From the NCBI GenBank assembly GCA_034667685.1, contig JAXDQU010000050.1:1-64000 (forward strand): a stretch of DNA of 64,000 nucleotides. Reading direction: 5' to 3'. A program made the position numbers and the translations under genes. Source of the stretch: Thermoplasmata archaeon. Its GTDB lineage: Archaea; Thermoplasmatota; SW-10-69-26; JACQPN01; JAJPHT01. The notes beneath the pieces were generated by a model. That model had not been told where the DNA came from. It was given only the letters and a program-made list of their open reading frames with translations, and searched no databases. Of the stretch, positions 3-64,000 are shown one piece after another (the stretch's first letter is position 1; the number at the start of each line of letters is the position of its first letter).

Positions 3-341
3 GTAGCTCGCGTAGAGGACGCCGCTCGTCGCGTGGTCGGGCGCGAACGCCACGCTCAGGAGCCCCTGCTCGCCGCCCGACCGGACCTTCGCGGTGAGAT
101 CGAGAAGGGGCGCCGCGGCCTTGACGCCGTTGGAGAGCGCCCACACCTTGCCCGCCTGCTCCACGACGTAGAGCACGTCGGTGCCGTCGCGCGCGCTCAC
201 CAAGTCGACGGGCCGGTCGAACCCGCTGGCGACCTCGCGCAGCGCGAAGCTCCCCTTGGCGTCCTTCTCGGGCGGCGTCGTGCCATGCGACGAGCAGCCT
301 GATAGCAGAATGACGGCCGCGAGAAGCCATGCCTTAGCCAT
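3..341 (-). CDS. PQQ-dependent sugar dehydrogenase (GSDH/YliI-like beta-propeller) lipoprotein, 3' end beyond window
   Basis: Not in ORF track. Manual translation from ATG 341: MAKAWLLAAVILLSGC (lipobox)...VASGFDRPVDL...LYVVEQAGKV...GGEQGLLSVAFAPD; start overlaps the stop of 334..723. Confidence 0.85.
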   Translation of the reverse strand, partial: MAKAWLLAAVILLSGCSSHGTTPPEKDAKGSFALREVASGFDRPVDLVSARDGTDVLYVVEQAGKVWALSNGVKAAAPLLDLTAKVRSGGEQGLLSVAFAPDHATSGVLYASY

Positions 342-723
342 CGGTCCACGTCCAGCGGAGCGTGTCGCCATCGTGGAGCGCGTAGCGCGCGGCGCTGCGG
401 TCTCCCCCGGCGCCGTTCACGAAGAAGATCCAGCCCGACGCGCCGTGCGCCGCGTAGGGGCCGATGGCGCGGACGTAGACGCCCATGCCGGGGTAGTCGT
501 CGACCTGGAGCGGGAGATGCGTGGCGACGAGCGCGCCGTACGCGGTCGCGTTGGCGAGCGTCAGGGTCCCGTTGTAGAGCGGGCCGCCGGGGCCGACGAC
601 CTCGACGCGCACCGTCGCCTCGCCCGCGCGCGGCGCCGCGGCGGTCCACCAGGCCAGCGCTCCGGCCGCGCCCACGAGGAGCGCGAGGAGGGCGGCGGCG
701 AGGACGAGGCGCGCGCGGGCCAT
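334..723 (-). CDS. DUF4430 / transcobalamin-like domain protein, membrane-anchored
   Basis: N-terminal TM helix, then YPGMGVYVRAIG...SGWIFFVNG...AARYALHDGDTLRW, typical of DUF4430; ATG 723. Confidence 0.8.
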   Translation of the reverse strand: MARARLVLAAALLALLVGAAGALAWWTAAAPRAGEATVRVEVVGPGGPLYNGTLTLANATAYGALVATHLPLQVDDYPGMGVYVRAIGPYAAHGASGWIFFVNGAGGDRSAARYALHDGDTLRWTWTDG

Positions 724-725
724 GA

Positions 726-759: not shown

Positions 760-784
760 AGGGCCAAAAACCCTTGGTCGCGCG

Positions 785-2649: not shown

Positions 2650-3830
2650 GGCGCGCGGACGCCGTCGCGGCCGTGGGCGCGCTGGCGGGCGCGACGCTCG
2701 CAGCCTTGCTCTGCCCGTGGCCCGTCGCCGCCGCGCTGCTGGCCGCCGCGCTCGCCGCCGGCCCGCAGCGGAGGCTCCTCGCGCTCTTCGCCGCGCCTGC
2801 GCTCGTCGTCAACGCCCTCGTCGTCGCGCTCGTGGGCGGAAGCTGGGCGGAGGGCGCGATCGGCGGCCTGCGCCTCGCCGCCGCGGTGGGCGTCAACCTC
2901 GCGCTCCTGGGCCGCGTGGGCGCCGCGCGCCTCGCCGAGGGGCTGCGCCTCCCGCCGCGCGCGACCGCCTGGGCCGCCGCGATCCTGCTCGCCGCCCATG
3001 ATATCAAATCCGACTTCGAGCGGCTTCGCCTCGCGCGCGAGCTGGAGGGGGGCTGGCCCCGCGGCCGCCTCGCCCGCGCGCGCGAGGCCGCGCGTCTCCT
3101 GCCCGCGCTGACGGTCGCCGCGCACCGGCGCGCGCAGGCCCGCCGCGATGCGCTCCAGCTCGCGGGCCACGCCATGCCCGCGTGGTTCGTGCCCGTGGTC
3201 GCCGTCGCCGCGCTGGGCGCCGCGGGCCGGCTCGCCTTCCTCGCGCTGCCCAACGTCGCGCTGACCTACGCGGTCGTCTTCCTGGGCGGCGTCCTCTGGG
3301 GCTCCGCGGCCGGCGCGCTGGGCGGCGCGCTCGCCATGCTCGTCACGGACCTCATGCTCACGGGCTTCTACCCGCCCGGCTTCGTGAACGTCCCCGCGAT
3401 GGCGCTGCTCGGGCTCGGAGGCGCCGCGATGCGCCGTGTCGACTGGACGGGCCCCGCGGGCGCGATGCTCGCCGCGTCCACCGGCATCGTGGCGACGTTC
3501 GCATTCAGCGCCGCCTCCGACGTCGCCACGTGGGCGCTCTTCCTGCGCACCGGCGGCCCGAGCCTCGCGGCGCTCGTCGCGCTCGGCCTTGCGTTCAATG
3601 CCATTCCGGCGCTCGCGAACGGCGCCCTCTTCGCGCTCAGCGTCGGCCCCTGCGTGCGCGCGCACGAAGCGCTGCGGCGATCGGCGCCGCGGCCACGAGC
3701 GCCCACAAGCCCAAGGGCGTCTCCCGGCGCGCGCTCTCCTGGGGGATCAGGCTCGGCGTCCGAGGCAGCGGGGTCGACGACGGCGTCGGAGCCGGGGCCG
3801 GAGCCTGCGGCGGCGGCGCCTGGATCGTGA
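2646..3830 (+). CDS. ECF transporter EcfT-S component fusion (CbrT-like, putative cobalamin)
   Basis: Hydrophobic N-half with EcfT-like coupling helices (ARELEG, RRAQARRDALQLAG); C-half GRLAFLALPNVALTYAVVFLGG resembles an ECF S component. Start uncertain: CTG 2646 (CTGA overlap) or GTG 2673. Confidence 0.7.
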   Translation: MRRADAVAAVGALAGATLAALLCPWPVAAALLAAALAAGPQRRLLALFAAPALVVNALVVALVGGSWAEGAIGGLRLAAAVGVNLALLGRVGAARLAEGLRLPPRATAWAAAILLAAHDIKSDFERLRLARELEGGWPRGRLARAREAARLLPALTVAAHRRAQARRDALQLAGHAMPAWFVPVVAVAALGAAGRLAFLALPNVALTYAVVFLGGVLWGSAAGALGGALAMLVTDLMLTGFYPPGFVNVPAMALLGLGGAAMRRVDWTGPAGAMLAASTGIVATFAFSAASDVATWALFLRTGGPSLAALVALGLAFNAIPALANGALFALSVGPCVRAHEALRRSAPRPRAPTSPRASPGARSPGGSGSASEAAGSTTASEPGPEPAAAAPGS

Positions 3831-6186
3831 GCTTGGCGTTCGCGCTCGACGTGCGCCCGTCGTCCGCGCGCGCCTCGACGCGCACCGCGTAGTCGCCGGG
3901 GCGGGCCCACGCGTGCGCGATGCGCGTCTCGCTCAGCCAACCTGAGAGGGTTCCGTCCCCGAAGTCCACCTGCCACGCGGTCGCGTTCGCGGGTGGCGTG
4001 ACGACCACGAGCCCCGGATCGAGGCGGAGGCCGGGTGCCACGAGCGGATCGGGCGGCCGCGGCGCGACGCGCAACGGGCCCGCGTGCTGCGAGGCCGCGA
4101 GGCCGCCCACGCGCGCGACGAGGTCGAGGTCGACGACCGTCGCGTCGGGCATCGGGATCGTGGCGCGCCCCGCGACGAGCGGCGTCTCGCCCTCGCCGAC
4201 GTCGCTGCGCCAGCGCACCGTCGCGTTGGCGTCGGCGGGCGCGATCTGCGCGCGGACCACGAGCGTGCCGTTCGCGAGCGATGCGTCGAGCGCGCGGATC
4301 GCGGGCGGCGCGGGAGCGGGCGGAGCGTCCCGCGCGGCGACGACGAGCGAGGAGGTCGCGCGCGCCTCCGCGCCCTCGGCGTCCCGCGCCACGACGGTGA
4401 TATCATACGCGCCCGCCGGCAGCGCGAGCGTGCCGTTCGCGCCCTCGACCGTGCGACCACCGAACGTCCACGTCACGCCCGGCGCGGGGCCGTCGGCGTC
4501 CGTCGCCTCGACGGAGAAGGCGAACGGCTGCGCCTCGGTCGCGGCGGCGGGCAGCGTGAGGTTCGCCAGCGTGGGTGCCAGGTCGGCCACCTCGACGGAG
4601 ACGTTCGCGTCGGCTTCCTGGCCCCAGGCATCGCGCGCGGCGAGCCGGAGCGTGAAGTTGCCCAGCGCCCAGGGGCGGACGCGCGGCGCGCCCCAGCCGG
4701 AGGCGTTGGCGAGCGACCAGCTCAACGTCACGGCGTCTCCCTCGGGGTCCGAGGCGGCGGGGTCGAGCGTGATATCATGGGCGCGGTCGGCGAGGATGCG
4801 CGCGGGCAGCGCGCCGAAGGCCGGGGGCTGGTCGCGCACGCGCACGGCGAAGGGGAGCGCGTCGCTCCACGCGCCTTCGTCGTCCTGGACGCGCAGCGCG
4901 CCCGCGTGGTCGCCGGGGCGCTCGTAGGCGTGCGTGGGGCTCGGCTGCGTCGAGTCGGTCGCGTTGCCGTCGCCCCAGTCCACGCGCCAGAGCGCGACGC
5001 GCCCGTCCGGGTCGCGCGAGGCCGAGGCGTCCAGCGCCACGGGCTGGCGGCGCAGCGCGGCGAGGTCCGCGGACGCGAGCGCGGCGAACGGGCGCGCGGT
5101 GAGGACGTGCAGGATCTCGCGCAGGCGGCACGCGACGCCCGCGCCGGTCGCGTCGAGCGCGAGCGGGACGTCGCCCTTCTGCGGCAACGTGAACGTCGCG
5201 TAGAGCCCCGTCGCGTCCTGGCCGCCGACGTGCCACGTCGCGGCGCCGAAGCCCGCGGGGACGCGCAGGGTCACGGGGTCGAGCGCGTGGATCTCGCCCG
5301 CGGCGGGCTGGCACGATCGATAGCTCGGCGGGCCGGCGGCGGGCTCCGCGAGGAAGGCCACGCTCTCGGCGGTGCACCAGCCGTCGGCGCCAAGCTCGCC
5401 CGAGGCGTCCTGCCGGGCCAGGAGCCAGGGCAGGTCGTCCGAGGGGGGCGGGATGCCCAGCGCTTCGTAGCCGCGCAGCGCCCAGACCGTGCTCTGGCAG
5501 TTGGGCGAGGGCGAGAGCGAGACGCCCGCGCCGTGGCCGCCCCCCTGGGCGTGCGTCCGGTTGAGGTAGAGCGAGGCGCGCAGGTCGCCCGCCACGTCCG
5601 CGCCCGCAAGGCGCAGCGCGAGGAGGGCCGCGCCGGTGTCGTCGGCGTCGCTCGTCGCGGCGCGGGGGACGTTGGACCAGCCGCCGTCCGCGTCCCGGCC
5701 CGCGAGCAGGAACGACGCCGCGGCCTGGACCTGCGGGTCGCTCGCGGGCACGCCGGCCGCGCGAAGGCCGAGGATCGCCCACGCGTCGTCGTTGACGTAC
5801 GCCGGGTCGCCGTACTGCCCGCCGGTGAAGTTGGCCTGGATCTGCGCGACGAGGTCGCCCCAGGGCGAGGCGCGCGGGTCGAGGCCGTCCATCCCCAGCG
5901 CGTGCGCGAGGCGCTCGTCGCCGTAGAGCCCGCCGCTGGCGTACTGGTAGGGGTGCAGGTCGGCGAGGATGGGCGTCGCGTCGTCGGGCCACGCGCGGAG
6001 GTCCTGCCCGGCCTCCGCCGCTGCCTCGGCCGCGTAGACGGGGTTGTAGCCGCCATAGGTGCCGTCGGCCGCGCGCGCGTGGGCGAGCCAGGCCAGGCCC
6101 CGCTGCGCCACGTCGCCGCGCGCATCCGCGTGGACGGGGGGCGCCAGCAGGGCGAGGAGCAGCACGGCCAGGCACGCGCGCCGCAG
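3637..6186 (-). CDS. Cell-surface protein with prenyltransferase/squalene-oxidase (alpha/alpha toroid) repeats, PKD domains and a C-terminal sorting signal
   Basis: Signal peptide; NDDAWAILGL, DADGGWS...DADDTGAALLAL repeats; PKD motifs LDASASRDPDG-WRVDWGDG and VDFGDGT; C-terminal TPLG-TM-RRGRR. Start GTG 6165 or CTG 6186. Confidence 0.8.
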   Translation of the reverse strand: MRRACLAVLLLALLAPPVHADARGDVAQRGLAWLAHARAADGTYGGYNPVYAAEAAAEAGQDLRAWPDDATPILADLHPYQYASGGLYGDERLAHALGMDGLDPRASPWGDLVAQIQANFTGGQYGDPAYVNDDAWAILGLRAAGVPASDPQVQAAASFLLAGRDADGGWSNVPRAATSDADDTGAALLALRLAGADVAGDLRASLYLNRTHAQGGGHGAGVSLSPSPNCQSTVWALRGYEALGIPPPSDDLPWLLARQDASGELGADGWCTAESVAFLAEPAAGPPSYRSCQPAAGEIHALDPVTLRVPAGFGAATWHVGGQDATGLYATFTLPQKGDVPLALDATGAGVACRLREILHVLTARPFAALASADLAALRRQPVALDASASRDPDGRVALWRVDWGDGNATDSTQPSPTHAYERPGDHAGALRVQDDEGAWSDALPFAVRVRDQPPAFGALPARILADRAHDITLDPAASDPEGDAVTLSWSLANASGWGAPRVRPWALGNFTLRLAARDAWGQEADANVSVEVADLAPTLANLTLPAAATEAQPFAFSVEATDADGPAPGVTWTFGGRTVEGANGTLALPAGAYDITVVARDAEGAEARATSSLVVAARDAPPAPAPPAIRALDASLANGTLVVRAQIAPADANATVRWRSDVGEGETPLVAGRATIPMPDATVVDLDLVARVGGLAASQHAGPLRVAPRPPDPLVAPGLRLDPGLVVVTPPANATAWQVDFGDGTLSGWLSETRIAHAWARPGDYAVRVEARADDGRTSSANAKLTIQAPPPQAPAPAPTPSSTPLPRTPSLIPQESARRETPLGLWALVAAAPIAAALRARARRGRR

Positions 6187-6195
6187 CGGACCACC

Positions 6196-6639: not shown

Positions 6640-6674
6640 GGACGAGCCTCGCGTCCGCGATTCGCGACGGGGGC

Positions 6675-6710: not shown

Positions 6711-6780
6711 GGGCTCGGGGCTCTGGACTCGGGGCTCAGGGCCCCGGAGCCTTGAGCCCCGAGTCCAGAGCCCGGAGCCC
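6711..6780. repeat. About 32-bp inverted repeat built of 7-mer units (GGGGCTC/TGGACTC)
   Basis: gggctcggggctctggactcggggctcagggc ... gccttgagccccgagtccagagcccggagccc. Confidence 0.85.
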
Positions 6781-6820
6781 TGCAAACGGTGAAATACCGG
6801 CGGGCCGACTCGGCGAGCGC

Positions 6821-7993
6821 ATGCGTGAGGAGCTTCGCCACGTCCTGCACAAGCAGGGCTACGGCACGGTGGGAGAGCACGTGGGCGTCAAGCTCTGCCA
6901 CTGGACGAAGGAGGACCTCAAGGGCGACCGCCATTGCTACAAGGGCGACTTCTACGGCATCGAGTCGCGCGGCTGCATGCAGATGACGCCCATCGTGGAC
7001 TACTGCAACTTCACGTGCCTCTACTGCTGGCGCTCGCAGAGCTTCGACCTTGATATCAACTCGCCTGGCTACAAGTGGGACGAGCCGCAGGCGATCCTCG
7101 ATGGCGCGATCTCGGAGCAGCGCCGCCTCCTCTCGGGCTACAAGGGGCACCCCACGACGCCCGAGTCGAAGTGGGTCGAGAGCCAGATGCCCAAGCACGT
7201 CGCCATCTCGCTCAACGGCGAGCCGACCTTCTACCCGCACCTGGGCGAGTTCATCCGCCTCTGCCACCGCCGCGGCATGACGACGTTCCTCGTGACCAAT
7301 GGCAGCCGGCCCGACCTGCTCGCCAAGCTCGACCCGCTGCCCACGCAGCTCTACGTCTCCGTGGACGCGCCCAACGAGGACGTGTTCAACAAGCTCTGCG
7401 TGCCCATCGGCGGGGGCGCGTGGGACAAGCTCGAAGAGACGATCGACCTCCTGCCTTCGCTCGACTGCCGCAAGGTCAGCCGCCACACGCTCGTGAAGGG
7501 GTGGAACATGGAGGCCGACAAGGGGCACGTCGAGCAGTACGCCAAGCTCGACGAGCGCGCCGGCGCCCACTTCGTCGAATCGAAGGGCTACGTCTTCGTC
7601 GGCTACAGCCGCGAGCGCATGACCATCGACAACATGCCCTCGATGGCCGACGTGCAGGGCTTCACCGACCGCCTCGCGCCGCTCATCGGCTACGAGCAGC
7701 AGGGCGCGCGCAGCGAGAGCCGCGTCACGCTGCTGGTCAAGCCGGGCGTCAGCCGCATGCTCGACCTCGAGGCGTGGGAGCGCGACCACAAGGTCGAGGA
7801 CCACCCGCCCGTCGCGCTCAAGGACGGCACGCGCATCGTCGATAGCAACTGGGAGCTCGTCAACCGCAAGCTCGCGGCCATGCGCGCGACCGGCCACTCC
7901 GAGGGCGACTGCGCCTGCGGCCACCCGCACGAGGCGCACGCGGTGCCGGCGCCCAAGGCGGAGCGCGTGCCCAACGTACGTCTCGGCAAGTGA
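6821..7993 (+). CDS. taw1: 4-demethylwyosine synthase (radical SAM, archaeal TYW1/Taw1)
   Basis: VKLCHWTK, CYKGDFYGIESRGCMQMTP, CNFTCLYCWR (CxxxCxxC), HVAISLNGEPT, FVESKGYVFVGYSR; ATG 6821. Confidence 0.95.
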   Translation: MREELRHVLHKQGYGTVGEHVGVKLCHWTKEDLKGDRHCYKGDFYGIESRGCMQMTPIVDYCNFTCLYCWRSQSFDLDINSPGYKWDEPQAILDGAISEQRRLLSGYKGHPTTPESKWVESQMPKHVAISLNGEPTFYPHLGEFIRLCHRRGMTTFLVTNGSRPDLLAKLDPLPTQLYVSVDAPNEDVFNKLCVPIGGGAWDKLEETIDLLPSLDCRKVSRHTLVKGWNMEADKGHVEQYAKLDERAGAHFVESKGYVFVGYSRERMTIDNMPSMADVQGFTDRLAPLIGYEQQGARSESRVTLLVKPGVSRMLDLEAWERDHKVEDHPPVALKDGTRIVDSNWELVNRKLAAMRATGHSEGDCACGHPHEAHAVPAPKAERVPNVRLGK

Positions 7994-23134: not shown

Positions 23135-23197
23135 TCCCATGCACGCATCGCCTCCTGCTACCAAACTGATATCGCCCCTGTAGAGGACGTAGGACCG

Positions 23198-30600: not shown

Positions 30601-31058
30601 GGGGTCTCACTCCCGGCGCGCGGGGCCAGGGCCGCGACGAGGCCCGCGAGGAGCGCCGTCGCGCTGAGGAAGAGGGGGAGCAGGAGGGTGGAGGCCTCGG
30701 GCGAGGCGGGTGATAGCACCGCGGCGAGCGCGCACGCGCCCGCGGCCACGAGGGTGACGAGCGCGAGGCTGCCGCGCTTCACGGGGCTCTCCTCGAAGCC
30801 GAGGAGGAGCGAGGCGAACGCGCAGAGGCCCACCGCGGCCGGGACGAGCCACGAGCCCGCGGGCGGCACGAGCGCGAGGCCCGCGAGGAGGAGCGCGGCG
30901 CGCGGGAGCAGCATCGCGGGGCGCACGAGGAGCAGCACCGCGACGGCGGCGAGCGCGAAGCCCGCGAGCAGCGAACGGACCGAGAAGGGCGTGGCGAGGA
31001 CGGCGAGGCCGCTGCCCGCGAGCGCCAGGAGCGCGCCCACGATGCGCTCAGGTCTCAA
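30597..31058 (-). CDS. Membrane protein (about 5 TM) of the MoxR operon
   Basis: Highly hydrophobic; overlaps neighbours at both ends. Confidence 0.75.
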   Translation of the reverse strand: MRPERIVGALLALAGSGLAVLATPFSVRSLLAGFALAAVAVLLLVRPAMLLPRAALLLAGLALVPPAGSWLVPAAVGLCAFASLLLGFEESPVKRGSLALVTLVAAGACALAAVLSPASPEASTLLLPLFLSATALLAGLVAALAPRAGSETP

Positions 31059-32259
31059 GGAACGCCACCTCCAGCGGGACGCCGGGCGCCCAGTCGACGA
31101 CGGAGACGCCGCTCCTGCGCAGGTCGTCGAGCGCGGTGGCGCGCGAGCGCTTCATGATCGGGTCGTCGAGGTGCGGCTGGGCGGGCGAGACCACGCGCAG
31201 GTCGCACCCCAGCGAGCGCAGGAGGCGCACGGCCTCGGGGATGCGCTCGTCGAGCGTGGCGGAGGTCGCCAGGTACACCTTCGTCTTGGAGCGGAAGAGG
31301 CGCATGTTCTGGCGGATCGCGTCGTCGAGCGGCATCTCGCCCTCCGGCGCCTGCTTGGCCAGCTCCAGCACGAGGTCGTCCGCGCGCGGGTTGGCGGCCA
31401 TCGAGAGGCGGCGCGCCCGCGCGGCCACGGCGACGAGCTCGACGTGGTCCTTGGCGCGGTCGTGGTGCGCGAGGAGCGAGGCGGCGGCGCGGCCGGAGCG
31501 GGCGCGCGCGGAGTCGACGTCGGGCTCGGTCGCCTCCTTCTCGCGCAGGTCGACGAGCACCACGACTCGCGAGAACGTGTCGCGCGTGACCTGGTTGACG
31601 ATGACGTCGCCGCTGCGCGCGCTGGCCTTCCAGTTGATGCGGCGGATGCTATCACCGGGCTGGTAGTCGCGCAGCGCGAAGAACTCGGCGCTGTCGCCCG
31701 GGCGCGAGACCTGGTGCGCGCCCAGCGCGGGCTCCGGCGCGGCGCGCGTGGGCTGGAACTTGCCGACCTTGGTGGCGCGCGGGAGCACGAGGACGTCGAG
31801 CCTGCCCGTCTCGGGGAGGTCGGCCTTCAGCAGGCGCAGCCCGTCGGTGACGGCGATCTCCAGCGGGCCGAGCGTCTTGGGGCCCCACGTCGCGGCGTTC
31901 CAGCGGATCTCGCGGACGTGCTCCGCGCCTCCGCGCAGGTCGACGCTGAAGGACTCCGCGCCCTCGGCCGCGAGCATGCCGGGCGTGGCGCGTTCGCGGG
32001 CCTCGGCGAGGACGGAGCGGCGCGCGTGGACCTTGATGCGCAGCGTCTCCACGACGGTCTCGCCCTCGACGAGCCGCGCGCGGGCGAGCTTGCGCTCGAC
32101 CTCGACGCGCGGGCGCGGGAGCGTGGCGAAGGCCCACGCGAGGGCGAGGGTCAGCGCGGTGGCGCACGCGGCGGCCGCTGCGCTCGCGAAGACGAACGCG
32201 AGTGCCCAGAGGAGGAGCGCCAGGCCGGCGGCGAGGCGACCGCGCGTGGTCAGGATCAT
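31048..32259 (-). CDS. DUF58 domain protein
   Basis: EFFALRDYQPGDSIRRINWKASAR; N-terminal TMs; ATG 32259. Confidence 0.92.
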   Translation of the reverse strand: MILTTRGRLAAGLALLLWALAFVFASAAAAACATALTLALAWAFATLPRPRVEVERKLARARLVEGETVVETLRIKVHARRSVLAEARERATPGMLAAEGAESFSVDLRGGAEHVREIRWNAATWGPKTLGPLEIAVTDGLRLLKADLPETGRLDVLVLPRATKVGKFQPTRAAPEPALGAHQVSRPGDSAEFFALRDYQPGDSIRRINWKASARSGDVIVNQVTRDTFSRVVVLVDLREKEATEPDVDSARARSGRAAASLLAHHDRAKDHVELVAVAARARRLSMAANPRADDLVLELAKQAPEGEMPLDDAIRQNMRLFRSKTKVYLATSATLDERIPEAVRLLRSLGCDLRVVSPAQPHLDDPIMKRSRATALDDLRRSGVSVVDWAPGVPLEVAFLET

Positions 32260-47865: not shown

Positions 47866-50800
47866 GCCCCGCGTCGGCGCCACCTCCAGAGGCGTCCGAC
47901 GAGGGCCACCAGCGCGAGGAGCGCGAGCGGCGAGGGGCCGGGGACGTGCTTGGCCGCGGAGCCCACGGCGCCCAGCGGGCCCTGCGGGACGTGGAGCGAG
48001 TCGCCGAACGCGGCCGTGTCGCCGCCGTGCGCGCCGTGCGGGTCGACCGCGACGACGATGGCGTGCAGGCCGGGCGTCGCGTTCCACGCCAGGTGCACGA
48101 GGCCCGACTCGGCGGGCGCGAGGTCGACCTTCTGGAGCGCGACGAGCGCGCCGTCGACGTAGAGCTCGACGGGGAGCCCGCGGAGCGCGTCGTCGCCGTC
48201 GTTGCGCACCTGGACCGCGTAGTCCACGAGCCCGCCCGCGCTGGGCGTGCCGGTGGCGCGCGTGACGTTGACGAGCGTCGCCTTGCCGGCGCGCAGGTCG
48301 AGCGAGAGCGGCGTGAGGTTCGCCAGCAGGCTGCCCGCGCTGGTCGCGGCCGGGTCGATCGCGCCCACGAGGGGCTGGTACATGCCGGGCTGGAGCCCGT
48401 CGGGCAGCTCGATCGTGAGGTTGAACGCGGCGCGGTCGCCCGGCGCGAGGCGCACGTTGGGCTGGTCGAACGTGGCGCGGGCGCCCGCGGGCAGGCCGTA
48501 GGCGCGCGGCTCGCGGACGGAGTCGTGGTTGCCGCTGAACGTGACGCCCAGCGCGTAGTGGATGGTGCGGCCCGCGGCGCTCACGCCCACGACGTCGAGG
48601 CGCGTCTCGCCCCACGGCTCCACCTGCGCGGAGACGGGCGCGTCGCCCAGCGTGGCCGCGTCCTGGCGCACCACGAGGCGCGCGTCCACGAGGCCCGGCT
48701 GCGTCGAGGCGGGAAGCTCGCCCACGATGGTGATGGGCGCCGAGTCGCCCGGCGGGACGTCGGGCGCGGCGATCTGGCCGAGCACGTGGCCGGCGGCGTC
48801 CTCGAGCAGCACGTCGCCCGAGAGCGGCGTGTTGCCGGTGTTGAGGAGCTGCGCGTCGACGCGGAGCGCCTGGGGCGGGCCCGCGGCGCGGTACACGATG
48901 GCGTCGGCGCCGGGGTGCGCGGCGACCGCGACGTCGAGCGTGCGCTGCGCGACGCGGCCCTGCGCGGTGGCTGCCAGCACGAGGCGCGCCTGGCGCGCGG
49001 GCTCGCTGGGGCCGGGCGTGATCGTCAGCGTGATCGCGCGCGACTCGCTGGGCGCCAGCGCCACCTTCGCGAGCGAGAGCGTGGCCGCGGGCGCGTCGCC
49101 CGTCGCGGTCACCGTCAGGAGCTGCGGGTAGGGGCCGGTGTTGACGAGCTGGACGGGCACGTCGAGCGGCACGCCGGGCTGGAGCGTCAGGTTCGTCTGC
49201 GCCACCTGGAACTGGATCTCCGGCGGGAAGATCGGGAGGTCGAGGTCGCGCTCGTTGTTGCCCGTGCTCAGCTCCAGGTTGGGCGTCGTGGCCTGCACGC
49301 GGAAGCGCGTGGCGTTGTCGGGCGCGAACTCGGTCGCCGAGACGTCGACGCCCTGGCCGGGCGCCAGCGTGCCCAGCGCCTGCTCGCGCAGCACCGCGCC
49401 GCCCTCGTAGATGCGGACGACGACGTCGTGCGCGTCGGCGATGCCGAGGTTCACGATGCGCGCGCCAAGCTGGATCACCTGGCCGGGGTTCGCCTCGTGG
49501 AGGACGAGCCCGGTGGGCGTGCGCACGACGAGGCTCGCCGGGTCGATGGCGAGGTCGGGGCGGATCAGCTGGATGACGCGGATCGGGACGGCGTAGCCGT
49601 CGTTGGCGTGGTCGTAGTCGACCTCGATGCGGTCCGGGTCCACGAGCACGTGGATGGTGTGGTTGCCGCGGTGGCCGAAGTCGGGGCGCCAGGCGTCCGC
49701 GACGACGGCGTCGACGCCCAGGGGCGCGCCGGCCTGCAGCGCGGGGATCGTCTCCTCGTGCGTCCACTCGGTGAGCCCCGTCGCGTCCTCCGTGATCCAG
49801 AGCTTGACGCGCGTGGGCGCGCTGTCGCGCGTGCCGAGGTTCGTGACGGAGACCGCGATCTGGTGGGGCACGCCTTCCTCGAGGCGGATGCCGGACGCGC
49901 CGGGCTGGCCGTCGAGGGTGAGCGAGGCCGCGAGGTCCGCGCGGGCCAGCGGCGCGAAGCGCAGCGTGAGCGGCGCCAGCACCTCGACGAAGGGCTCGTC
50001 GAGGCTCGTGGCCGCGACCTGCGGTGATAGCACGCGGGAGAAGGAGCCGCGGGCCGCGGGCGAGCTGGCGCGCAGCGTGACGCGCATCGAGGCGCCCGGC
50101 GCGATGGTCACCTGGTCGGGCACCATCTGGAGCCAGCTGCGCTCCGAGGGGTTGAGGTTCGACGCGAGCCGGTCGAGGCTCAGCGAGACCGTCTTGGGCG
50201 CCGCGCCCGGGTTCGTCAGGAGCAGCGGGAAGTCCTTCACCGCGCTGTCGGTGAGCGGGAAGTCGAGGCCCGCGGGCGAGAGCGAGAGCTCGCCGCTGGC
50301 CAGCGTGACCGCGCCCAGGCGCCATCCGGCTCCGTCCCCGTTGCTCACGACGAATTTGATGGTGACGTTCTTGCTCTCGAAGCCGCAGCCGGTGCCCAGC
50401 GCCAGGCGCGTGAACGTCCACTGGGGCGAGGAGCCGCCGGGCGCGTAGCCGAGCACGCGCGTGCAGCCGTCGTCGGCGATCGCGAGGACCGAGACGTTGC
50501 CGTTGCCCTCGAAGCGGGGCTTCGACCAGAACTCGACGGCCGCGTCGGACGTCGCGCCGCGCATGTCCACGAGGGGCGAGGTCAACGAGCCGTTGAACCA
50601 CGAGGTGAGCTTCTTCCCCTGGCCGACCTCGGTGTCGTTGAGGCCGATGAGCATGCTGGCGTTGCCGAAGGCGTGCTCGTCGTCGGTCTTGCGCCACTGG
50701 ACCTTGGAGGTCGTCTCCCCCGGGTTGGGGAGGGTCGCGGGCACCCACAGCCCCGCGTCCTCGGCGAAGTCGGTGCCGTACGCCACGTCGCCGCGGGCGA

Positions 50801-53800: not shown

Positions 53801-56800
53801 AGACGTAGCGCGGGCGCCCCTCGCGGCCGATCTCCGGGCTGATCTGCGCCTGGATGGCGAGGTCGTTGCGCGTGCGGGCGACCAGCGAGCCGTCGAGGCC
53901 GATCGTCATGTTGTCGTTGAGGTCGTTCTCGTCGAAGTCGGCGCCCAGCGCGCGCACGTGCGCCTGGATGCTGTAGGCCGTGTCCTCGCCCACCGGCACG
54001 GTCCAGGGCACGGTCTGGGAGGCCGTCTCGTTGGGCGCGAGGACGCCAAGGTCGATGGACGTCGAGTTGATCGGGGCGCCGTGGAGCCGCGAGACGTTCA
54101 CGTCCACGCCCAGGGTCAGGGGGAACTGGCCGGTGTTGCGCACGGTGACGTGGATGGGCACCACCGTGTTGGGGCCCACGCCCATGCTCTGCCAGTCGTA
54201 GGGCAGGTTGAGGCTGAGGTTGTCGACCGCGCCGTCCATCGCGAAGACGGAGACGGGCGTCACGCGCAGGTCGCGCAGGAGCCAGTATGCCTGGACGAAT
54301 GCATTCTCGTCGGCGCTCTGCGTGCCCACCTGCTCGGAGGCGCGGAACCCGAGGCGGACGTCGCGGTTCGCGAGGTCGACGCCCGCGAGCATGGGCTGGC
54401 CGCGCAGGTGGAACGACGCGAGGCGCGTGACCGGCGCCGGCATGGGAAGCGCGGCGTTGAGGATGGTGGCGTTCACGATGTTGCCAAGGTACGTGCCATC
54501 GGCATCGCAGAACGGGACCCCGACGTTCCCCACGCATGGGCCGGTCTGGAAGAAGCCGTCATAGCCGCTGATGTAGGTGCTGCTCTTGCGCTCGTCGCCG
54601 CTCGGATTCGCGAGCACGAGGCCGGGCGCGGGAGGGTAAAGACCGCCGTTGCCGTCCGGGTAGATCGGATAGAAGGGCGACCAGGTCCCGTCGTCGAGGC
54701 GGTACTGGAGCTCGACGTATCCGACCTGGTTGATGCCGTACGTGAGCTGGTTCGCGTACACGCCGAACGACTCCCTGTGGAGGAACGTGACGAGCGGGTC
54801 GGAGGCTTCGGTGAAGTGGAGCACGGGCGACGTGAGGCGGTCGGAGGACTGCACGGCCGTCGTCGCGGGCGGATAATACTCGAAGACGGAGGGGCTGCCG
54901 TCGAGCGTGTCGGCGCCGCCAGGCGCGTCACGCCAGAGGGTCGGGAAACTGCCCGGCAGCTGCCCTTTGTCCCAGGCCGCGGCCTCCGCCGCGCTCATGG
55001 TGAACCAGCAGTTGAATCCGGCCTGGACCGGGACGCTCGTGCCGGGGGTGACCTGGCTCGCCTGCGGGGGCGGGAGGGTCGGGTCCTTCCACGTGCACGA
55101 GGAGGGCTGCGCGGGCGCGCCGCCGTCGCCGGCGTTGCCGGTGAGGTGGATGATATCCGTGCGCCAGCTCTCGTCCTTCCCGTCCGGGACGCCCGTGAGC
55201 CGCAGGTCGTCGATGAAGATGCCCGTCTCGTTGGCGAATGTGAACTTCGGCATGAGCGCGGTGGCGCGCAGCTGCATGCCGTTGAGCGACCAGGTGTCGA
55301 CGTAGAGCGAGCTGGGGTCGATGTTCACCGGGAGGTCCTTGCTGTGCCACGTCAGGTTCTGATCCACCTGGCCGTAGGTGGCGGGCGTCGGGTCCACGCC
55401 CACCTGGGTGCTCCAGACCAGGGAGCTCACCGGCAGGGAGCCCTGCAGGAACGAAGTGTCGAACGTCGGATTGGTGTACGTGATGCTCAGCCCAAGCTGT
55501 CCCAGGCCCGAGATGGCGCCTTGGAACGGCTGGCTCTCCATCCAGCGCACCGAGATGCGTAGGTCGTGGTACGTCGCGCCGGAGGCCTGGGTCACGGCGC
55601 TGGGGCCGGCCGTGAGGATGGGGTAGCTCCGCTGCGACTTGTCCAGCGCGGGCTCGTCGGAGTGGCGCGCGACCCACATGGAGCCGGGCACGCCGGGCGA
55701 GTCGTCGAGCGGGATGGGCATCGTGGCCAGCTCCGCGCTCCAGTTGGGGTCGTGCGCGCCGCCGGGCTCGCGGAAGATCGGCGGCGGGGACCGGTGGACG
55801 TAGAAGTGCGCGAGGTGAGGCGTGGGCAGGCTGCCGGGGATCGACGTGTTGAGGGAGAGCGTGTGGAGGCCGCGCGGGGTGCCGTTGAACGGCCACGAGC
55901 GGTTCGCGCGCGCGCCAGGCTCGAGGTGCACGATCTCGTCGTCGCGCGCGACCGTCGTCGTGTTCACGCCGTCGGGGAGGAACGACTCGGTGAGATGGAG
56001 CTGGAGGTCGATGGGCACGTTGCCGTGGTTGGTGAGGTTGGCCATCGCCGTGGCGGTCTGGCCGTCGTCGACGAGCGGCTGCATCGACTCGAGCGTGGCT
56101 TCGTAGCGGATCACGGTGGTCGCGTCGAGCGTGAGGCTGCCCGCGTTGTCGCGGTCGGACGGGTCCGTGAGCGTGAGGTTGCCCTCGGGGCTCACGACAT
56201 CGGCGCGCGCGACGAGCGAGACGGAATTCCCCTCGCCGGGCATGGTGAACGTGATCGGCACGGTCCAGGTGGCGCCGGGCCCGAGCCAGGCGTCCTGGAT
56301 CAGCTGGTCGGGTCCGGCCGCGGCGCCGGCCTGCGTGATGCGGAGGCGGACCCGGCCCGCCGTCGAGGCGGCGTGGATGACGATGACGTGGGCCGTGACG
56401 TTCTCGCCCGGACGCGCGCGGTCGTCGTGGTCGGTGGCGTCGAGGCGGAAGCCGGTGCCCTGCACGCCGTAGACCTTCACGTCCTGCGGGAAGGCGGGCG
56501 CGACGACGCGCACCTGGTCGATCTGCCAGCCGGGCTTGACGCCCGGGGGAAGCTGCGTGAGGTAGTCCGGGTCGGAGGAGGCCTGCGGCGAGGTGGCGAC
56601 GTGGAAGCCCACCCAGATCGTCTGGCCCAGGAAGGGCGTGAGGTCGAACGTGACGGGGGTCCAGTCGGACGCGTTGGTGAAGCCGGCGCGGCCGTCGAGC
56701 GCGTGGACGCTGCCGCGCTGCGCCATGCCGTTCATCATGGCGAGCGGGAACGCCTGCTCGTCGGCGTGGAGCGCGGGGTCGTGCAGGTAGGCGACGACCT

Positions 56801-57395: not shown

Positions 57396-60300
57396 TGACG
57401 TTTCCTCCGGGCGATGGCGTAGATGGTGACGGCGGCGGCCAGCACGAGCCCGAGCCCGGCGGCGCCGAAGAGCGGGACGCGCGAGATGCCCACGAGGCCC
57501 GCGAAGCTGGGCGCCTTGGCGTCCGCGAGCACGGTGGGCCCCTCGAGCGCGCCCGTCGCGGGCAGCGCGGTGGAGGCCTGGCCGCTCGTGGCGCGGAAGG
57601 CGTAGGAGTGCGCCTGGCCGGCGAGGGTCTGGGGCCCCATCTCGACGAGCGCGGACCAGTTGCACGCGCGCATGCAGCCTGGCTCCGGCGCCAGCGCGTG
57701 GGGCGCGCCGTCCACGACGACCTCGACGCGGGGCGTCGCGCCGGGGTCGGCGTCCACGTGGACGAGGAAGCGGAAGAAGCCGGGCCCGCCCAGGGGCGGA
57801 TCGACGCGGCCCTCCGAGAGGTGCGCGAGCGGCGTGGAGCGCACGACGATGGCCGCGGGCGCGCCCTCGTTGCCCGCGCGGTCGAGCGCCGCGACCTGGT
57901 AGGTCGCCTCGACGCCCGGCGGGATGCTATCATCGAGCGAGGTCTCGACGACCGTGCGGACCGGCGCGCGGACGTCGCCGAGCGTGCGGACGACGGCGTA
58001 GCCCGCGATGCCGCTGACGTTGTCCTGGCCCGACGACCACGAGAGGCGCACGTTGCCGTCGCCGAAGTCCTGCCAGCGCAGGCCCGCGACGGGGGCGGGC
58101 GGCTGGAGGTCGGGGACGGGCGCGCCGGCGACGGGGAGCGTGACCAGGCGGCCCGCCTGGTCGGTGAGCGTGAGCATCGCGGTGAAGTTGGCGCCGGGCG
58201 GCACCGAGAGCTCCATGCTGTGGAGCGTCGACCACGCCGCGTCGGCGCTGGGCGCGCCCTGCCCGAGCTGCACCTGGCTGCGCGTGGGGACCGTCGTGGC
58301 CACGCGCACGCTGACGCGCGAGTAGGTCAGCGGCGTGACGTCGAGGGCGGTCGTGGCGGCGGGCGTCGCGTCGACGATGCCGCTCGCGTGGAGCGTAACC
58401 TGGTTGCCGCCGAGGTCCTCGACGAGCACCGTGATATCAATTGGGCCGGGCTGCGCGTCCGAGGGGACCGGGACGTCGAGGCCGTAGGCGCGCGCGCCGG
58501 TCGCGTGGAGGCGCGCCTCGGCGCCGCCCAGCGCGGAGAGGTTCGCCACGACGCGGCGCACCTGGCCGGGCACGTCGACGCTCAGCGTGGCCGTGCCGCC
58601 GGGCGCGACGTGCGGCGCGTCGCGCGGGCCGTGCAGGCTCGCGCGGATCGCGGAGGCGTCGAGCGCGGCGACGTCGAGCGTGAACGCGATGCGGCCCAGG
58701 TTGCCCGCGCGGTCGGGGACGCGGATCTCGACCTGCGCGGGGCCGGTGGGGAGGCTGGGGACGACGCACGAGAGCGTGTTCCCCACGAGCATCGCCGCGC
58801 ACGGGACGTCCGCGAAGGTCCACGAGACGTTCGCGAAGTCGACGCCGCTTCCGCTCTCCTCGACGTCGAGGCCCAGCGCGGCGCCGGGCGCGACGTTCGC
58901 GCGCGGGCGCATGAGGAGCTGCGGGGGCGTCGCGTCGATGCGGACCGGGACGGGGGCGGAGGTCGCGGTCTCGCCCTCGGCGTCGGTGGCGATGAGGGTG
59001 AGGTTGTAGTCGCCGTCGCGGAACGTGCCCAGCTGCGCGACGAGGGTGCCCGCGCCGTGGTCGAACGCGCCGGCGCCGACGACCTCGGGGCTGCCGCGCG
59101 GGCCGGCGAGGACGGCCTGCAGCTCGCCGCTGACGGGCGCGCCGTCGAAGCGCGCGACGACCGCGTCGACGCGCGTGCGGTTGAGGACGTTGGTCGCGGG
59201 GATCGAGGCGTTCACGACCAGCGCGGGAGGCGTGTGGAACGCCGTGACGTTGGAGAGCGTCTCGATGCCGCCCTGCGTCTTCGACACCGCGCGCGCGAAG
59301 TAGTCGCTGTCCGGCAGGAGCCCCGTCAGGTTGACCGCGTGGCTGGCGCCGCCGGCGTCCTGCGCGGTCTGCTGGCCCAGCTGCGGGCTGAGGCCGTAGA
59401 GCACGCGGCCCCAGGTGGTGAGGTTGGTGGTCCACGAGACGACCGCGGTGTCGGCGCGCGGCGTCGTGACGACGGGGTCGGAGACGCTGGTGCGCGCGAG
59501 GCTCAGCGTGGCGTTGAGCGCGAGCGTGGCGAAGTTGCCCGCGGCGTCGGTGACGCGCACGCTGTAGTTGGCGACGCCGGCCGCGGTCGCGCGGTCGATG
59601 GGGATCTCGTTGGCGACGTAGGACGCGCCGTTCCAGCGCAGCGAGACGGCGCCCATCGAGGAGAGGTTGCCCACGTCCGCGAGGACGGTGAGCGAGCCGG
59701 GGTCGCTGAGGTTGTCGAGCGCGTCGACGCGCAGCGAGCCCAGGTCGCCCGGGTGCGCGAGGGTGCGCGCGTCGGCGCCGAAGCGGAGCGCGGCCGCGAG
59801 GATCACGGGCGGCTCGCCGTCGACGTCCACGTCGCCGATCTTCAGCGGCTGGGCCTGGTTGCCCGCGGCGTCCCACGCGGTGAGCGTGATCTGCTCGCGC
59901 GCGTTGCCCGTGGGGACCAGCGAGCCGCCCCAGAGTCCGTCGCCGAGGTTCGAGAGCGAGACCTGGTCGGGGCCGGCCTGCGCGACGATGCGCGCGACGC
60001 CGGTGCCGCGGTCCACGGCGGCGACCTTGATCGGGATGGGCGTGCCGGGCGCGACGTGCACGTCGATGTCGGTGAGCGGCGTGACCTGCGGAGCGACCGT
60101 GTCCATCACGCGCGTGGGGAGCGTCCGCGTGGCGATCGCGTCGAGGAAGCCGTCCGTGACCACGTCGGGCGCGTAGGGACGCGGCGTGCGCAGGCCTTCG
60201 ACGTTGCCCGAGTAATCTCTGCTCAACAGGAGGAGCTTGAAGGGCGTGCCATCGCCGGGCTGGCGCACGTCGACGTAGCCCTGCCACGAGGGGACCGTCA

Positions 60301-63300: not shown

Positions 63301-64000
63301 AGGCCGTGGAGCCGACGCTGACGCCCAGCCGGGGCAGGTCGAGGAGCCAGCCGGTGGGCGAGGCCGTGTCGCCGGTGTAGACCTCGTCGGAGCTGCTGCC
63401 CGGGTCGCTTCCCACGACGACCGCGGCGCCGTCGGGGATGTCGTCGCGGTTCTTGTCCGCCGTGGGGCTCGGGTTGTTGATATCAAGGTAGGTGGCCACG
63501 CCGCCGGGGTTGCCGTTGGCGTCGGCGGAGGAGAGGAAGACGTCGTTCTTCTGCCTGGAGACGTCGTAGGTCGCGCCGTCCGCGCCGTGCACGAGGAAGA
63601 CGTCGGGGCCGTTGATATCAACGAACGTCGCGCTCGACGCGTTGGTCCAGCCGTCGATGCCCGTGGTGGACCGGTTGGTGACCGCGCCCTGGTAGCTGGG
63701 CAGCGCGTCCGGAGGCGTGGCGACGCCCACGCGGTCGTAGATCGTCGCGCCGCTGAGGTCGACGAACATCGCGTGGGCGGGGTTCGGGCTGCTCACGGTG
63801 GGGGTGCCGCCGGAGACCAGGATCTGGCTCCCCTCGGGCGCCGCGACGCCCTGCCAGGGCGCCTTGTAGACCGCGGCGCCGGTGAGCTTCACGAGGCTCG
63901 CGGAGCCGCCGGTCGCGTAGGCCTGCGAGAGGTTGCCCGCGATGAACTGGTCGTTGCCCGCCGCGTCGAGGAGGATCGCCGAGCCGGACCCGGCCGCGAA
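57392..64000 (-). CDS. Giant surface protein (>2200 aa, 5' end beyond window): Gly-rich beta-solenoid repeats, FN3/Ig domains, sorting signal
   Basis: Frame open to 64000; LLD..G.D.Y...AQG.A..G repeats; D.AGN Ig ends; VPLFG-TM-RRKR. Confidence 0.88.
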   Translation of the reverse strand, partial: FAAGSGSAILLDAAGNDQFIAGNLSQAYATGGSASLVKLTGAAVYKAPWQGVAAPEGSQILVSGGTPTVSSPNPAHAMFVDLSGATIYDRVGVATPPDALPSYQGAVTNRSTTGIDGWTNASSATFVDINGPDVFLVHGADGATYDVSRQKNDVFLSSADANGNPGGVATYLDINNPSPTADKNRDDIPDGAAVVVGSDPGSSSDEVYTGDTASPTGWLLDLPRLGVSVGSTASTLWTREGALQVDLGGSNTHLSRAGASSASFPVSLALDLGGGDVYAYNASTPLSGYTTNAVLGSDTSTLDGPLFVGGAQGAGVLGVGVLVNGGGGNVFSVYANATGGASVVGAAQGAGVLGVGILRVNGGGNRYEVQAGVEAPDVATASATTLSQGAALFGLGILDTSGAPAGDRFALSALSKGKSTTNSTAGQGFAMHGVGVLLEESGNNVFVASDHAQGATLGGGDVDQRGLLNEQSVEPALRAGASVGALLLSGSGADDLRADIMSQAYADAGLAILYKAEGPGTFTLTGPYRDVTTKEVSGGTSFTLTRPLHVALGQAAAVRGGFALLLSPHGDDRYVAAGQDAQAYGDGGTALLLDLSGADAYLATTRAQGYATDGEGWVAQAQGAGWPTAAALVDRRGNDDYELADDAPLAQGATSGPAAVAAGVSGTPPPVAAFVDAGGFDRYHGAHPLNQKVVNGASDGDRNDWSWQSGQGIGVDSDFPGLVMAQLLPVLQPVVGAQVRAEGANVTDAGVGSRNVTFAAWLGTAAGSATSLPVSAVDRVEFDVDHAPAGNGTLASTGEYTYLFDTAQRDPLGHLLFPDGLHEIEGYVYARTGTPEGGSSPAAAVDAEPFAASRSLPIDNAPRAAGVDLPAALSPALAPLRFRTWIDRDLETGACAACVGLPYLTPGPDLWTPVAQPDPWGAAAADTACNVPGCVPFVSAYSGAGNVYLNWSAPRQSFPPVVGYRLERVQDGIGTPLGYLDPRAPLRWVDVAPPGPNATYRVHALRIEGGVLAEAVGSAGKTDIRADLPRPVSGVRAEGTEGGIEVTWLAVPGATSYKITRTAPNGSTIQPGSTDAFLFDTTAEPDLPYTYAVIAQDAAGDAIASDAVSAQASPGENVTLQLVGPTVLTLLDRAPVGGNQILDVPLDLRGSPIPDGQYLLKLDEVDHAGHQNASQQVVTMDGTPPVTLTPLPLLVPDSFSTGGLLRIPFEARDAGSGAATTTAFEQIDGAWTHVTVPSWQGYVDVRQPGDGTPFKLLLLSRDYSGNVEGLRTPRPYAPDVVTDGFLDAIATRTLPTRVMDTVAPQVTPLTDIDVHVAPGTPIPIKVAAVDRGTGVARIVAQAGPDQVSLSNLGDGLWGGSLVPTGNAREQITLTAWDAAGNQAQPLKIGDVDVDGEPPVILAAALRFGADARTLAHPGDLGSLRVDALDNLSDPGSLTVLADVGNLSSMGAVSLRWNGASYVANEIPIDRATAAGVANYSVRVTDAAGNFATLALNATLSLARTSVSDPVVTTPRADTAVVSWTTNLTTWGRVLYGLSPQLGQQTAQDAGGASHAVNLTGLLPDSDYFARAVSKTQGGIETLSNVTAFHTPPALVVNASIPATNVLNRTRVDAVVARFDGAPVSGELQAVLAGPRGSPEVVGAGAFDHGAGTLVAQLGTFRDGDYNLTLIATDAEGETATSAPVPVRIDATPPQLLMRPRANVAPGAALGLDVEESGSGVDFANVSWTFADVPCAAMLVGNTLSCVVPSLPTGPAQVEIRVPDRAGNLGRIAFTLDVAALDASAIRASLHGPRDAPHVAPGGTATLSVDVPGQVRRVVANLSALGGAEARLHATGARAYGLDVPVPSDAQPGPIDITVLVEDLGGNQVTLHASGIVDATPAATTALDVTPLTYSRVSVRVATTVPTRSQVQLGQGAPSADAAWSTLHSMELSVPPGANFTAMLTLTDQAGRLVTLPVAGAPVPDLQPPAPVAGLRWQDFGDGNVRLSWSSGQDNVSGIAGYAVVRTLGDVRAPVRTVVETSLDDSIPPGVEATYQVAALDRAGNEGAPAAIVVRSTPLAHLSEGRVDPPLGGPGFFRFLVHVDADPGATPRVEVVVDGAPHALAPEPGCMRACNWSALVEMGPQTLAGQAHSYAFRATSGQASTALPATGALEGPTVLADAKAPSFAGLVGISRVPLFGAAGLGLVLAAAVTIYAIARRKRQ

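Follow-up and report, generated by a model that had tools for sequence, protein, structure and literature searches.

The window analyzed here covers positions 1 to 64,000 of contig C50 in assembly G000 (3,481,428 bases in 124 contigs, 71.1% GC), and its subject is an AT-rich palindromic word of eight letters, TGATATCA, that recurs along it. The host of this word is a Thermoplasmatota archaeon; for its small-subunit rRNA gene, the archaeal model gives 1498 bits and the bacterial one 1086, which bears out the archaeal origin guessed in the first-pass annotation. The GC content of the window ranges from 0.69 to 0.765. A first-pass annotation, made from the letters alone, had listed 14 exact copies and put the chance expectation well below one copy per 64 kb. 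All 14 positions are correct, and 100 dinucleotide-preserving shuffles of the window gave a mean of 0.02 copies (largest, 1). Matches to TGMTAKCA number 19 (0.33 expected), among them the five variants reported at 300, 30711, 31647, 50025, and 57925, which are likewise correctly placed. Sites with at most one mismatch number 23 versus 1.89 expected, namely the 14 exact copies and nine one-mismatch copies at 300, 1707, 8678, 23167, 30711, 31647, 50025, 55151, and 57925. Six further one-mismatch copies had been claimed: those at 1707, 23167, and 55151 stand, those at 7840 (CGATAGCA), 8281 (TGCTATCT), and 38255 (GGATAGCA) have two mismatches, and one at 8678 (TGAGATCA) had been overlooked.

Genes were called as open frames with high GC at codon position 3 (GC3) and more GC at codon position 1 than at position 2 (GC1 > GC2). 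The resulting 2443 frames, an incomplete set in which a few are possibly wrong, span 72% of the genome. The annotation had placed all 14 exact copies in coding sequence in a single phase. This holds for the 11 copies in called genes, all of which read NNT GAT ATC ANN, and for two more (45276..45283 and 45615..45622) in uncalled DNA that has minus-strand codon periodicity in the same phase, but not for the copy at 2999..3006 (CAT GAT ATC AAA), where no gene is called by GC3 and the periodicity is ambiguous. At that position, the aligned words in three congeners are CGACGTGC (G003), CGACCTCG (G004), and GGACGTGG (G002).

Within a minus-strand gene at 3640-6165, the copy at 4398..4405 reads TAT GAT ATC ACC (Y-D-I-T) and is aligned with CGACGCGC in G003; the copy at 4770..4777, also in a minus-strand gene, reads CAT GAT ATC ACG (H-D-I-T) and is common to G003. 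The plus-strand gene at 6752-7990 carries a copy private to G000 at 7051..7058, CTT GAT ATC AAC (L-D-I-N), for which the orthologs have CTG GAC GTC (G003 and G002), CTC GAC ATC (G004), or ATC GAC ATC (G007, of another genus). A CARDB-domain protein gene on the minus strand (27856-30600) reads CCT GAT ATC AAC (P-D-I-N) at 29646..29653. Four copies lie in a minus-strand gene for a 2031-amino-acid surface protein: TTT GAT ATC ACG (F-D-I-T) at 35041..35048, CTT GAT ATC AGC (L-D-I-S) at 35827..35834, CAT GAT ATC ACG (H-D-I-T) at 38884..38891, where G003 has TCACGCCC, and a second CTT GAT ATC AGC (L-D-I-S) at 39967..39974. The last is private to G000, the plus strand of G003 reading TGATGTCC there, which is GAC ATC on the coding strand. 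Three more belong to a giant minus-strand gene at 57395-66859 of the contig, with ATT GAT ATC ACG (I-D-I-T) at 58432..58439, CTT GAT ATC AAC (L-D-I-N) at 63478..63485, and GTT GAT ATC AAC (V-D-I-N) at 63613..63620. Around the copies at 45276 and 45615, two overlapping minus-strand open frames of 3490 and 3267 amino acids (44065-57665) are not resolved by the GC3 caller; either a single giant surface-protein gene that changes frame or a fault in the assembly may lie behind them.

Among the variants, TGATAGCA, in which position 6 changes from T to G and which is tolerated, lies at 300..307, 30711..30718, and 50025..50032. The form TGCTATCA lies at 57925..57932 and at 31647..31654, where the coding (minus) strand reads GGT GAT AGC ATC (G-D-S-I) and G003 has GGC GAC AAC. 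Two copies vary at an end position, TGATATCC at 55151..55158 and TGATATCG at 23167..23174, the latter of a class that is enriched 16-fold in the phase NNT GAT ATC Gnn. We call encodable any X-Asp-Ile-Z peptide in which X has a T-ending codon and the codon of Z is able to start with A, and we define occupancy as the share of encodable sites that carry the full TGATATCA. The contig of the window has 27 encodable sites, 13 of them filled; the high copy number in the window is due to the many encodable peptides on its contig.

Enrichment and symmetry of the word at the level of DNA

Genome-wide, TGATATCA is present at 378 sites versus 4.0 expected from base composition, a 94-fold excess that makes it the most overrepresented 8-mer in G000, at one per 9.2 kb. 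Genes hold 272 of these copies, versus 4.8 ± 2.6 (largest, 10) in 30 shuffles that permuted synonymous codons within each gene and kept both amino acids and codon usage; this control had been set beforehand as a refutation, and the enrichment survives it. Because 378 of the 745 copies of GATATC in the genome (51%) have the flanks T...A, the unit is the 8-mer and not the EcoRV core. Beyond called genes, 57 copies lie in codon-periodic DNA and 49 in nonperiodic DNA, many of the latter at gene junctions of the form TGATATC-ATG. Nongenic copies at gene starts (C111:8588, C111:18462, C124:69689, C106:6939, and others) read GGAGG-spacer-TGATATC-ATG or its complement CAT-GATATCA, the word filling the spacer between the Shine-Dalgarno-like GGAGG and the start codon or bridging a TGA stop and the next ATG.

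The full word occupies 258 of the 552 encodable peptides (47%). The codon pair GAT-ATC is used at 304 of 552 Asp-Ile sites where both flanks fit the word, at 71 of 640 where only the left flank fits, at 16 of 69 where only the right one does, and at 1 of 109 where neither does. In called genes, 258 of the 272 copies encode Asp-Ile in one frame, as would be expected if the word arose in translation or protein, through a favored codon pair GAU-AUC in context or a selected peptide. Against such an origin, the dominance of NNT GAT ATC ANN has a simple cause: one of the other frames would include the stop TGA, and the remaining one requires ATA plus TCA, the two rarest codons. Even in those frames, and in noncoding DNA, the word or its nearest allowed form is enriched. 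The frame xTG ATA TCA is used for 14 of 206 Leu/Val/Met-Ile-Ser peptides (0.0 expected), xTG CTA TCA for 152 of 875 Leu-Ser pairs (0.3 expected), and CGA TAT CAx for 35 of 128 Arg-Tyr-His/Gln peptides (1.5 expected); for TGC TAT CAx, the count is 27 of 29. On the coding strand, 152 of 185 copies of TGCTATCA are in the frame xTG CTA TCA, and they hold 152 of the 704 CTA and 152 of the 794 TCA codons in called genes; for these Leu-Ser pairs, CTA was chosen 152 times and TTA once. Furthermore, the codon that precedes the word is of 16 kinds, GAC ATC is used when the flanks cannot complete the word, and relatives with the same proteins are without it. We therefore consider an origin in translation or protein essentially refuted. 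The proposal that the constraint falls on DNA and not on protein is borne out by the other frames and noncoding DNA, by the near absence of GAT-ATC without fitting flanks, and by the symmetry of the flanks described below: the word acts at the DNA level.

The base directly 5' of the word is A, G, T, or C in 74, 74, 66, and 40 of 254 cases. The preference for A or T at this position reported from the first-pass annotation holds in the window (13 of 14 copies), but genome-wide the preference is for a purine. Occupancy is 0.60, 0.59, 0.38, and 0.33 with A, G, T, and C at position −1 (purine, 119 of 200 sites filled; pyrimidine, 73 of 208; Fisher p = 1e-6), and it is 0.63, 0.45, and 0.38 with C, T, and A at position +1 (pyrimidine, 174 of 313; A, 48 of 125; Fisher p = 0.0015). 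Since the preference is symmetric and the coding constraints on the two sides are unrelated, a reader of R-TGATATCA-Y (R, purine; Y, pyrimidine) with two-fold symmetry is indicated. The idea that the word is part of a longer repeat or of a mobile element was rejected, as the flanks lack conservation in 254 contexts.

Deviating copies are concentrated at particular letters. The pair TGATAGCA/TGCTATCA accounts for 329 sites (16.7 times the zero-order expectation) and CGATATCA/TGATATCG for 164 (8.3 times), and every other single-letter variant reaches at most 3.6 times. By position, deviations fall at positions 3/6 (329 sites) and 1/8 (164 + 52 + 29), and G2/C7 is nearly invariant. Position 3 takes A or C, and position 6 takes T, then G, and hardly C or A; accordingly, the form xxT GAT AGC A is used for 54 of 397 Asp-Ser pairs, 0 of 500 Asp-Thr pairs, and 1 of 147 Asp-Asn pairs. 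A:T and C:G base pairs share their amino/keto pattern in the major groove, and the tolerance of A or C at position 3 is thus as expected of direct read-out by a protein. Forms that are a single silent change away from the word stay close to baseline (TGACATCA, 29 versus 27.9; xxC GAT ATC A, 39 versus 35.4), and therefore the effect is cooperative, that is, all or none. As a negative-control word to be used beside TGATATCA and TGATAGCA, TGATACCA is proposed.

A mutational process without any reader, either quasi-palindrome template switching or a context-specific mutation bias, would account for one feature of the spectrum: two changes turn the usual precursor, CGACATCA, into TGATATCA, and each of them makes the left half complementary to a fixed right half. 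However, 14 other tested palindromes of the form TG....CA in G000 reach 0 to 1.5 times expectation, and TGATAGCA, an abundant variant, is no palindrome. Nor are the intermediates enriched, and the word is restricted to one genus whose close relatives match it in GC content. Moreover, eight base pairs with no loop are too few for a palindrome to fold. We consider this explanation improbable.

The first-pass annotation had also suggested mapping the density of the word against origin, terminus, and islands; over the contigs of this fragmented assembly, no regional restriction is seen. Among the 23 contigs with at least eight encodable sites, none differs significantly in occupancy from the genome-wide 47%, and neighboring encodable sites are filled independently (230 switches versus 223.7 ± 10.6 in 2000 permutations). 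Word positions are evenly distributed along genes. Of 757 intervals between sites or main variants, 16 (2.1%) are shorter than 150 bp, versus 4.3% for an exponential distribution, and there are no clusters; operator-like clusters near a regulator gene were rejected, as almost all of the 16 close pairs lie within genes. The sole operator-like pair seen, at C17:50831-50877 in apparently noncoding DNA, consists of two CGATATCACC copies 39 bp apart plus a third, GATATCC.

Occupancy instead follows the constraints on the gene. Because the word is AT-rich and the genome 71% GC, every copy requires two rare codons, and only 5 of 35 encodable sites are filled in genes with GC3 of at least 0.98, versus 253 of 517 elsewhere (p = 4e-5). 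In blocks at least 82% identical to G003, 17 of 50 sites are filled, versus 44 of 75 in less conserved ones. The word is traded off against codon and protein constraint.

The genome also contains repeats of other kinds. Intergenic hairpins (6712-6779 of the window and, for example, C8:33976-33991 and C12:70624-70681) have arms of tandem 7-nucleotide units (GGGCTCN or GGACTCN) followed by the inverted complement. Arrays of the heptamer GCTGAGG (variants GCTAAGG and GCTAGGG) occur, for example, at C8:1-159 (minus strand), C13:18147-18293, and C16:19026-19083 (minus strand); several are preceded by a conserved CCTCTGTG...GGCTGGAGG, and several lie at contig ends. A link between the word and heptamer hairpin repeats was rejected, the word being near 6 of 189 repeat clusters found genome-wide with a simple pattern.

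Range within the genus, turnover of sites, and imprint on proteins

We compared G000 with four congeners (G001, G002, G003, and G004; the genus genomes are 86 to 99% complete), within a family set of 9 genomes and a class set of 21 (the 5 of the genus and 16 others). The five genus genomes hold 378, 210, 141, 111, and 53 copies (the last in G004), with site densities of 109, 55, 50, 41, and 17 per Mb across the five species, and the 16 other genomes of the class hold 0 to 9 each. The signal is thus lineage-specific and iterated in the manner of HIP1 or uptake sequences, as had been suggested, with enrichment in 5 of 5 genus genomes versus 0 of 16 others. Apparent enrichment elsewhere in the phylum (G030, G032, G037, and G034) was rejected, as the raw counts there come from abundant GATATC, of which 3 to 13% has the flanks T...A; in G003, that share is 36%.

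Positions are not conserved along with the word. For the closest congener, G003 (1.187 Mb used), 684 kb could be aligned in one-to-one blocks at 79.4% identity. Of 85 G000 sites, 17 are kept as TGATATCA in G003, and of 38 G003 sites, 17 are common to G000. Of 174,904 control 8-mers of that phase, 26.4% are conserved in full; for controls with T at both third positions, the figure is 87 of 516. The expectation that sites would be conserved at synonymous positions was not confirmed: at 17 of 85 (20%) versus 26.4%, sites are not kept better than ordinary sequence. In a comparison of all five genomes over six 20-kb G000 segments, picked for many sites (which biases the counts, not the sharing), 43 positions have the word in any genome and none is shared beyond the sister pair G000/G003; 5 occur in G000 and G003 but in no other genome, 5 are found solely in G003, and 4 solely in G002. 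At 19 G000 sites for which G004, G002, or G001 could be aligned, the word is in none of those three. From these alignments, the word accumulates separately in each species, at mostly species-specific positions. Among public soil runs, one carries the identical strain, free of differences, and another a strain about 98.5% alike; of the differences listed, none lies in a site. Over part of a MoxR-like ATPase gene (32403-32969 of the window), read depth reaches hundreds to thousands in four soil or rhizosphere runs and tens elsewhere; this peak reflects a conserved domain common to many soil organisms, not a copy-number signal.

These results bear on another possibility: a nucleoid, segregation, or replication protein may bind the sites as part of its function, in the style of matS, SlmA, or Noc sites, and selection would keep them. 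A palindrome with symmetric flanks fits a dimeric DNA-binding protein, as do hundreds of dispersed single sites with a deficit of close pairs. Furthermore, occupancy is correlated between G000 and G003 at sites encodable in both (filled/empty table 10/15/3/28; odds ratio, 6.2; p = 0.011). For HIP1, the highly iterated palindrome discussed below, a role of this sort is advocated by Xu et al. (2018; PMC5861425). However, neither the comparison with G003 nor the five-genome comparison reveals conserved positions, filled sites are random along contigs with uniform occupancy over them, and density follows the supply of near-matching peptides rather than position. We regard selected binding sites of this kind as unlikely.

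The word has also left an imprint on proteins. After Asp-Ile, the residues T, I, K, N, and M make up 35.0% of 1370 cases, versus 15.4% proteome-wide and 12.9 to 18.0% after nine control dipeptides, and Ala, Gly, and Glu are depleted. In G003, where only 36 of 123 encodable sites are filled, the corresponding shares are 27.1% and 14.7%. At aligned positions, 61 peptides are encodable in G000 only versus 31 in G003 only (p = 0.002); the excess is in filled sites (31 versus 9) and not in empty ones (30 versus 22). A typical replaced pair is GGC GAC GTC GCC in G003 versus GGT GAT ATC ACG in G000. The word has brought conservative amino acid replacements, and the proteome is distorted. A comparable effect is reported by Findlay and Redfield (2009; PMC2817400), in whose study tripeptides encoded by uptake sequences are doubled.

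Search for a reader and candidate mechanisms

If a DNA methyltransferase stood at the center of the system, as in Elhai's model of HIP1, the word or its GATATC core would be methylated at position 3, and methylation-dependent repair, replication, or restriction would make and keep the sites. The concentration of deviations at positions 3/6 and 1/8 around a nearly invariant G2/C7 would suit such an enzyme. A and C, the only bases tolerated at position 3, are the two with an exocyclic amino group, and position 3 is the adenine modified by EcoRV-type methylases (M.EcoRV). In addition, G000 encodes several DNA methyltransferases. According to Elhai (2015; PMC4390886), alternate HIPs accompany a methyltransferase of matching specificity, and HIP1 deviations concentrate at particular positions.

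We searched the 9 family genomes for the Pfam families PF02086, PF01555, PF02384, and PF00145 and with two G000 enzymes as protein queries. The co-distributed methyltransferase that had been suggested was not found: in these families, none is common to the five species and absent from other genera, though the genomes are incomplete and enzymes of unknown families are possible. A 1009-amino-acid DUF1156 protein with a DPPY motif (L047; G000:C118:34272-37298, minus strand) and a 406-amino-acid protein with an SPPY motif (L050; G000:C97:3226-4443) are each present in G000 only and are probably strain-specific defense genes. A second SPPY enzyme has counterparts of 58 to 66% identity both in genera that have the word and in genera that do not; it is absent from G002 and G003. 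Of the C5 enzymes, one of 328 amino acids is inherited across the whole family, and the remaining ones are 23 to 40% identical to one another. A D12-class methylase was not found in the four congeners. Among candidates for methylation-dependent processing, none of the 9 family genomes yielded MutS domain I, and an EcoRV-type nuclease was seen in 0 of 5 genomes (a search without a positive control). Matches to Vsr were limited to G003, G002, and, weakly, G004; G000, the genome richest in sites, gave none. With no enzyme of the right distribution among those found, we hold a methyltransferase-centered origin to be possible but doubtful.

Two side observations concern these gene families. The Vsr-type genes L167 and L170 (G003) and L168 (G002) adjoin C5 cytosine methyltransferase genes that are unrelated to each other. 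Among tetranucleotides in G000, relative to the zero-order expectation, CTAG (0.08), TATA (0.17), and TTAA (0.20) are scarce and GATC, TCGA, and ACGT abundant (2.0 to 2.8). By an analogy with haloarchaea that we assume here, the family-wide SPPY methylase is a candidate CTAG enzyme, which fits the CTAG value.

TGATATCA is a cooperative, symmetric, uniformly occupied, and genus-limited word. The first-pass annotation had named several mechanisms and preferred none. The reading that we favor, tentatively, is that R-TGATATCA-Y belongs with HIP1 and uptake sequences as a highly iterated DNA word, here specific to one genus and spread by fixation bias. A symmetric, sequence-specific protein would read the whole 8-mer through the major groove, accepting A or C at position 3 and hence T or G at position 6. 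Whenever recombination or gene conversion exchanges or repairs DNA, be it among genome copies or from cell to cell within the genus, alleles with the complete word would be kept slightly more often than alleles without it. Such a bias would affect every near-match, against the pressure for G/C-ending codons, and the word would be accepted wherever the protein tolerates it, conservative amino acid changes included. It would then accumulate independently in each species and would not mark particular functional positions. What we infer from these patterns is a reader that acts as a dimer, a bias in fixation, and a tie to recombination. Fixation bias (molecular drive) is the explanation of uptake sequences in Redfield's work, and the random filling of sites, the trade-off with codon and protein constraint, the distortion of the proteome, the limitation to one genus, and the private positions lead us to favor drive by recombination or gene conversion here.

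Several observations weigh against the favored reading. Selection for overall site density fits these data as well as drive does, and the two cannot be told apart. The public-run pieces from the variant strain do not cover sites and yield no polymorphism there that could bear on a bias in recombination, and a reader protein was not found among the gene families searched. ComEC (PF03772) and DprA (PF02481) were each found in 0 of 9 family genomes, by searches that recovered them in 10 and 11 of 14 control genomes and that did not extend to archaeal import systems. The correlation in occupancy between G000 and G003 may be due to shared ancestry, and it also fits some maintenance of individual sites. 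A pure "final word" model fails for TGCTATCA, which fills 152 of 875 Leu-Ser pairs but, as xxT GCT ATC A, only 6 of 800 Ala-Ile pairs; the rarity of GCT explains only part of this gap. Finally, known uptake sequences and Chi are not palindromes.

A more specific proposal, which we offer as a speculative one, is that TGATATCA might be the first archaeal "self" DNA word. A symmetric receptor or recombination factor would prefer DNA that carries it, and gene conversion or exchange would drive its spread without ComEC, DprA, or MutS.

Comparison with known systems

The core of the word, GATATC, is that of an EcoRV-type site. Unlike restriction sites, which are usually avoided, TGATATCA is enriched, and the congeners yielded no D12 methylase. 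The matS, SBS, and NBS families comprise tens of sites at conserved positions in one domain, unlike the 378 sites of uniform occupancy and nonconserved position described here. A closer likeness is to Chi, the 8-mer of RecBCD/AddAB, which is enriched in its host, marks "self" in recombinational repair, and occurs once per several kilobases. Unlike TGATATCA, Chi has no symmetry, shows a skewed orientation, and is enriched much less strongly, and RecBCD-type enzymes are bacterial.

With uptake sequences (the uptake signal sequences of Pasteurellaceae and the DNA uptake sequences of Neisseriaceae), TGATATCA shares hundreds of lineage-specific copies and a graded tolerance of mismatches. According to Findlay and Redfield (2009; PMC2817400), genic accumulation of such sequences roughly doubles the encoded peptides and favors less conserved genes, as it does here. 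Unlike them, TGATATCA is palindromic, and its family lacks detectable ComEC and DprA. HIP1 (GCGATCGC) is, like TGATATCA, a perfect 8-bp palindrome that is lineage-specific, lies mostly at silent positions in genes as well as in noncoding DNA, and has one-letter variants enriched at particular positions. Xu et al. (2018; PMC5861425) give a 15- to 300-fold enrichment for HIP1, a range that includes the 94-fold found here, and report that HIP1 sites are more conserved than control words, which TGATATCA sites are not. TGATATCA further differs from HIP1 in its letters, in being AT-rich in a 71% GC genome, in its archaeal host, in its density (one per 9.2 kb versus about one per kilobase or per gene), and in that a cognate orphan methyltransferase was not found among the families searched.

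In its enrichment, the word is therefore of the type of HIP and uptake sequences, and it departs from HIP1 in conservation and from uptake sequences in the competence genes; it is neither HIP1 nor a proven uptake sequence. Our literature searches found neither this nor a comparable archaeal word, in agreement with the first-pass annotation, though supplementary tables of HIP1 papers might list noncyanobacterial palindromes; searches for an archaeal uptake signal likewise found none. HIP1, uptake sequences, and other highly iterated words rank among the strongest signals in prokaryotic genomes that are unexplained or explained only in part, and so far they are known from bacteria. The archaeal case is unusually clean, in that an AT-rich word stands out, about half of the encodable sites are filled, and proteins are shifted. 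Five species with 53 to 378 copies represent different stages and make selection versus drive testable, and the word is a possible practical marker for DNA of the genus and for its recently acquired genes. If the "self"-word reading were true, TGATATCA would be the archaeal counterpart of uptake sequences, Chi, and HIP1.

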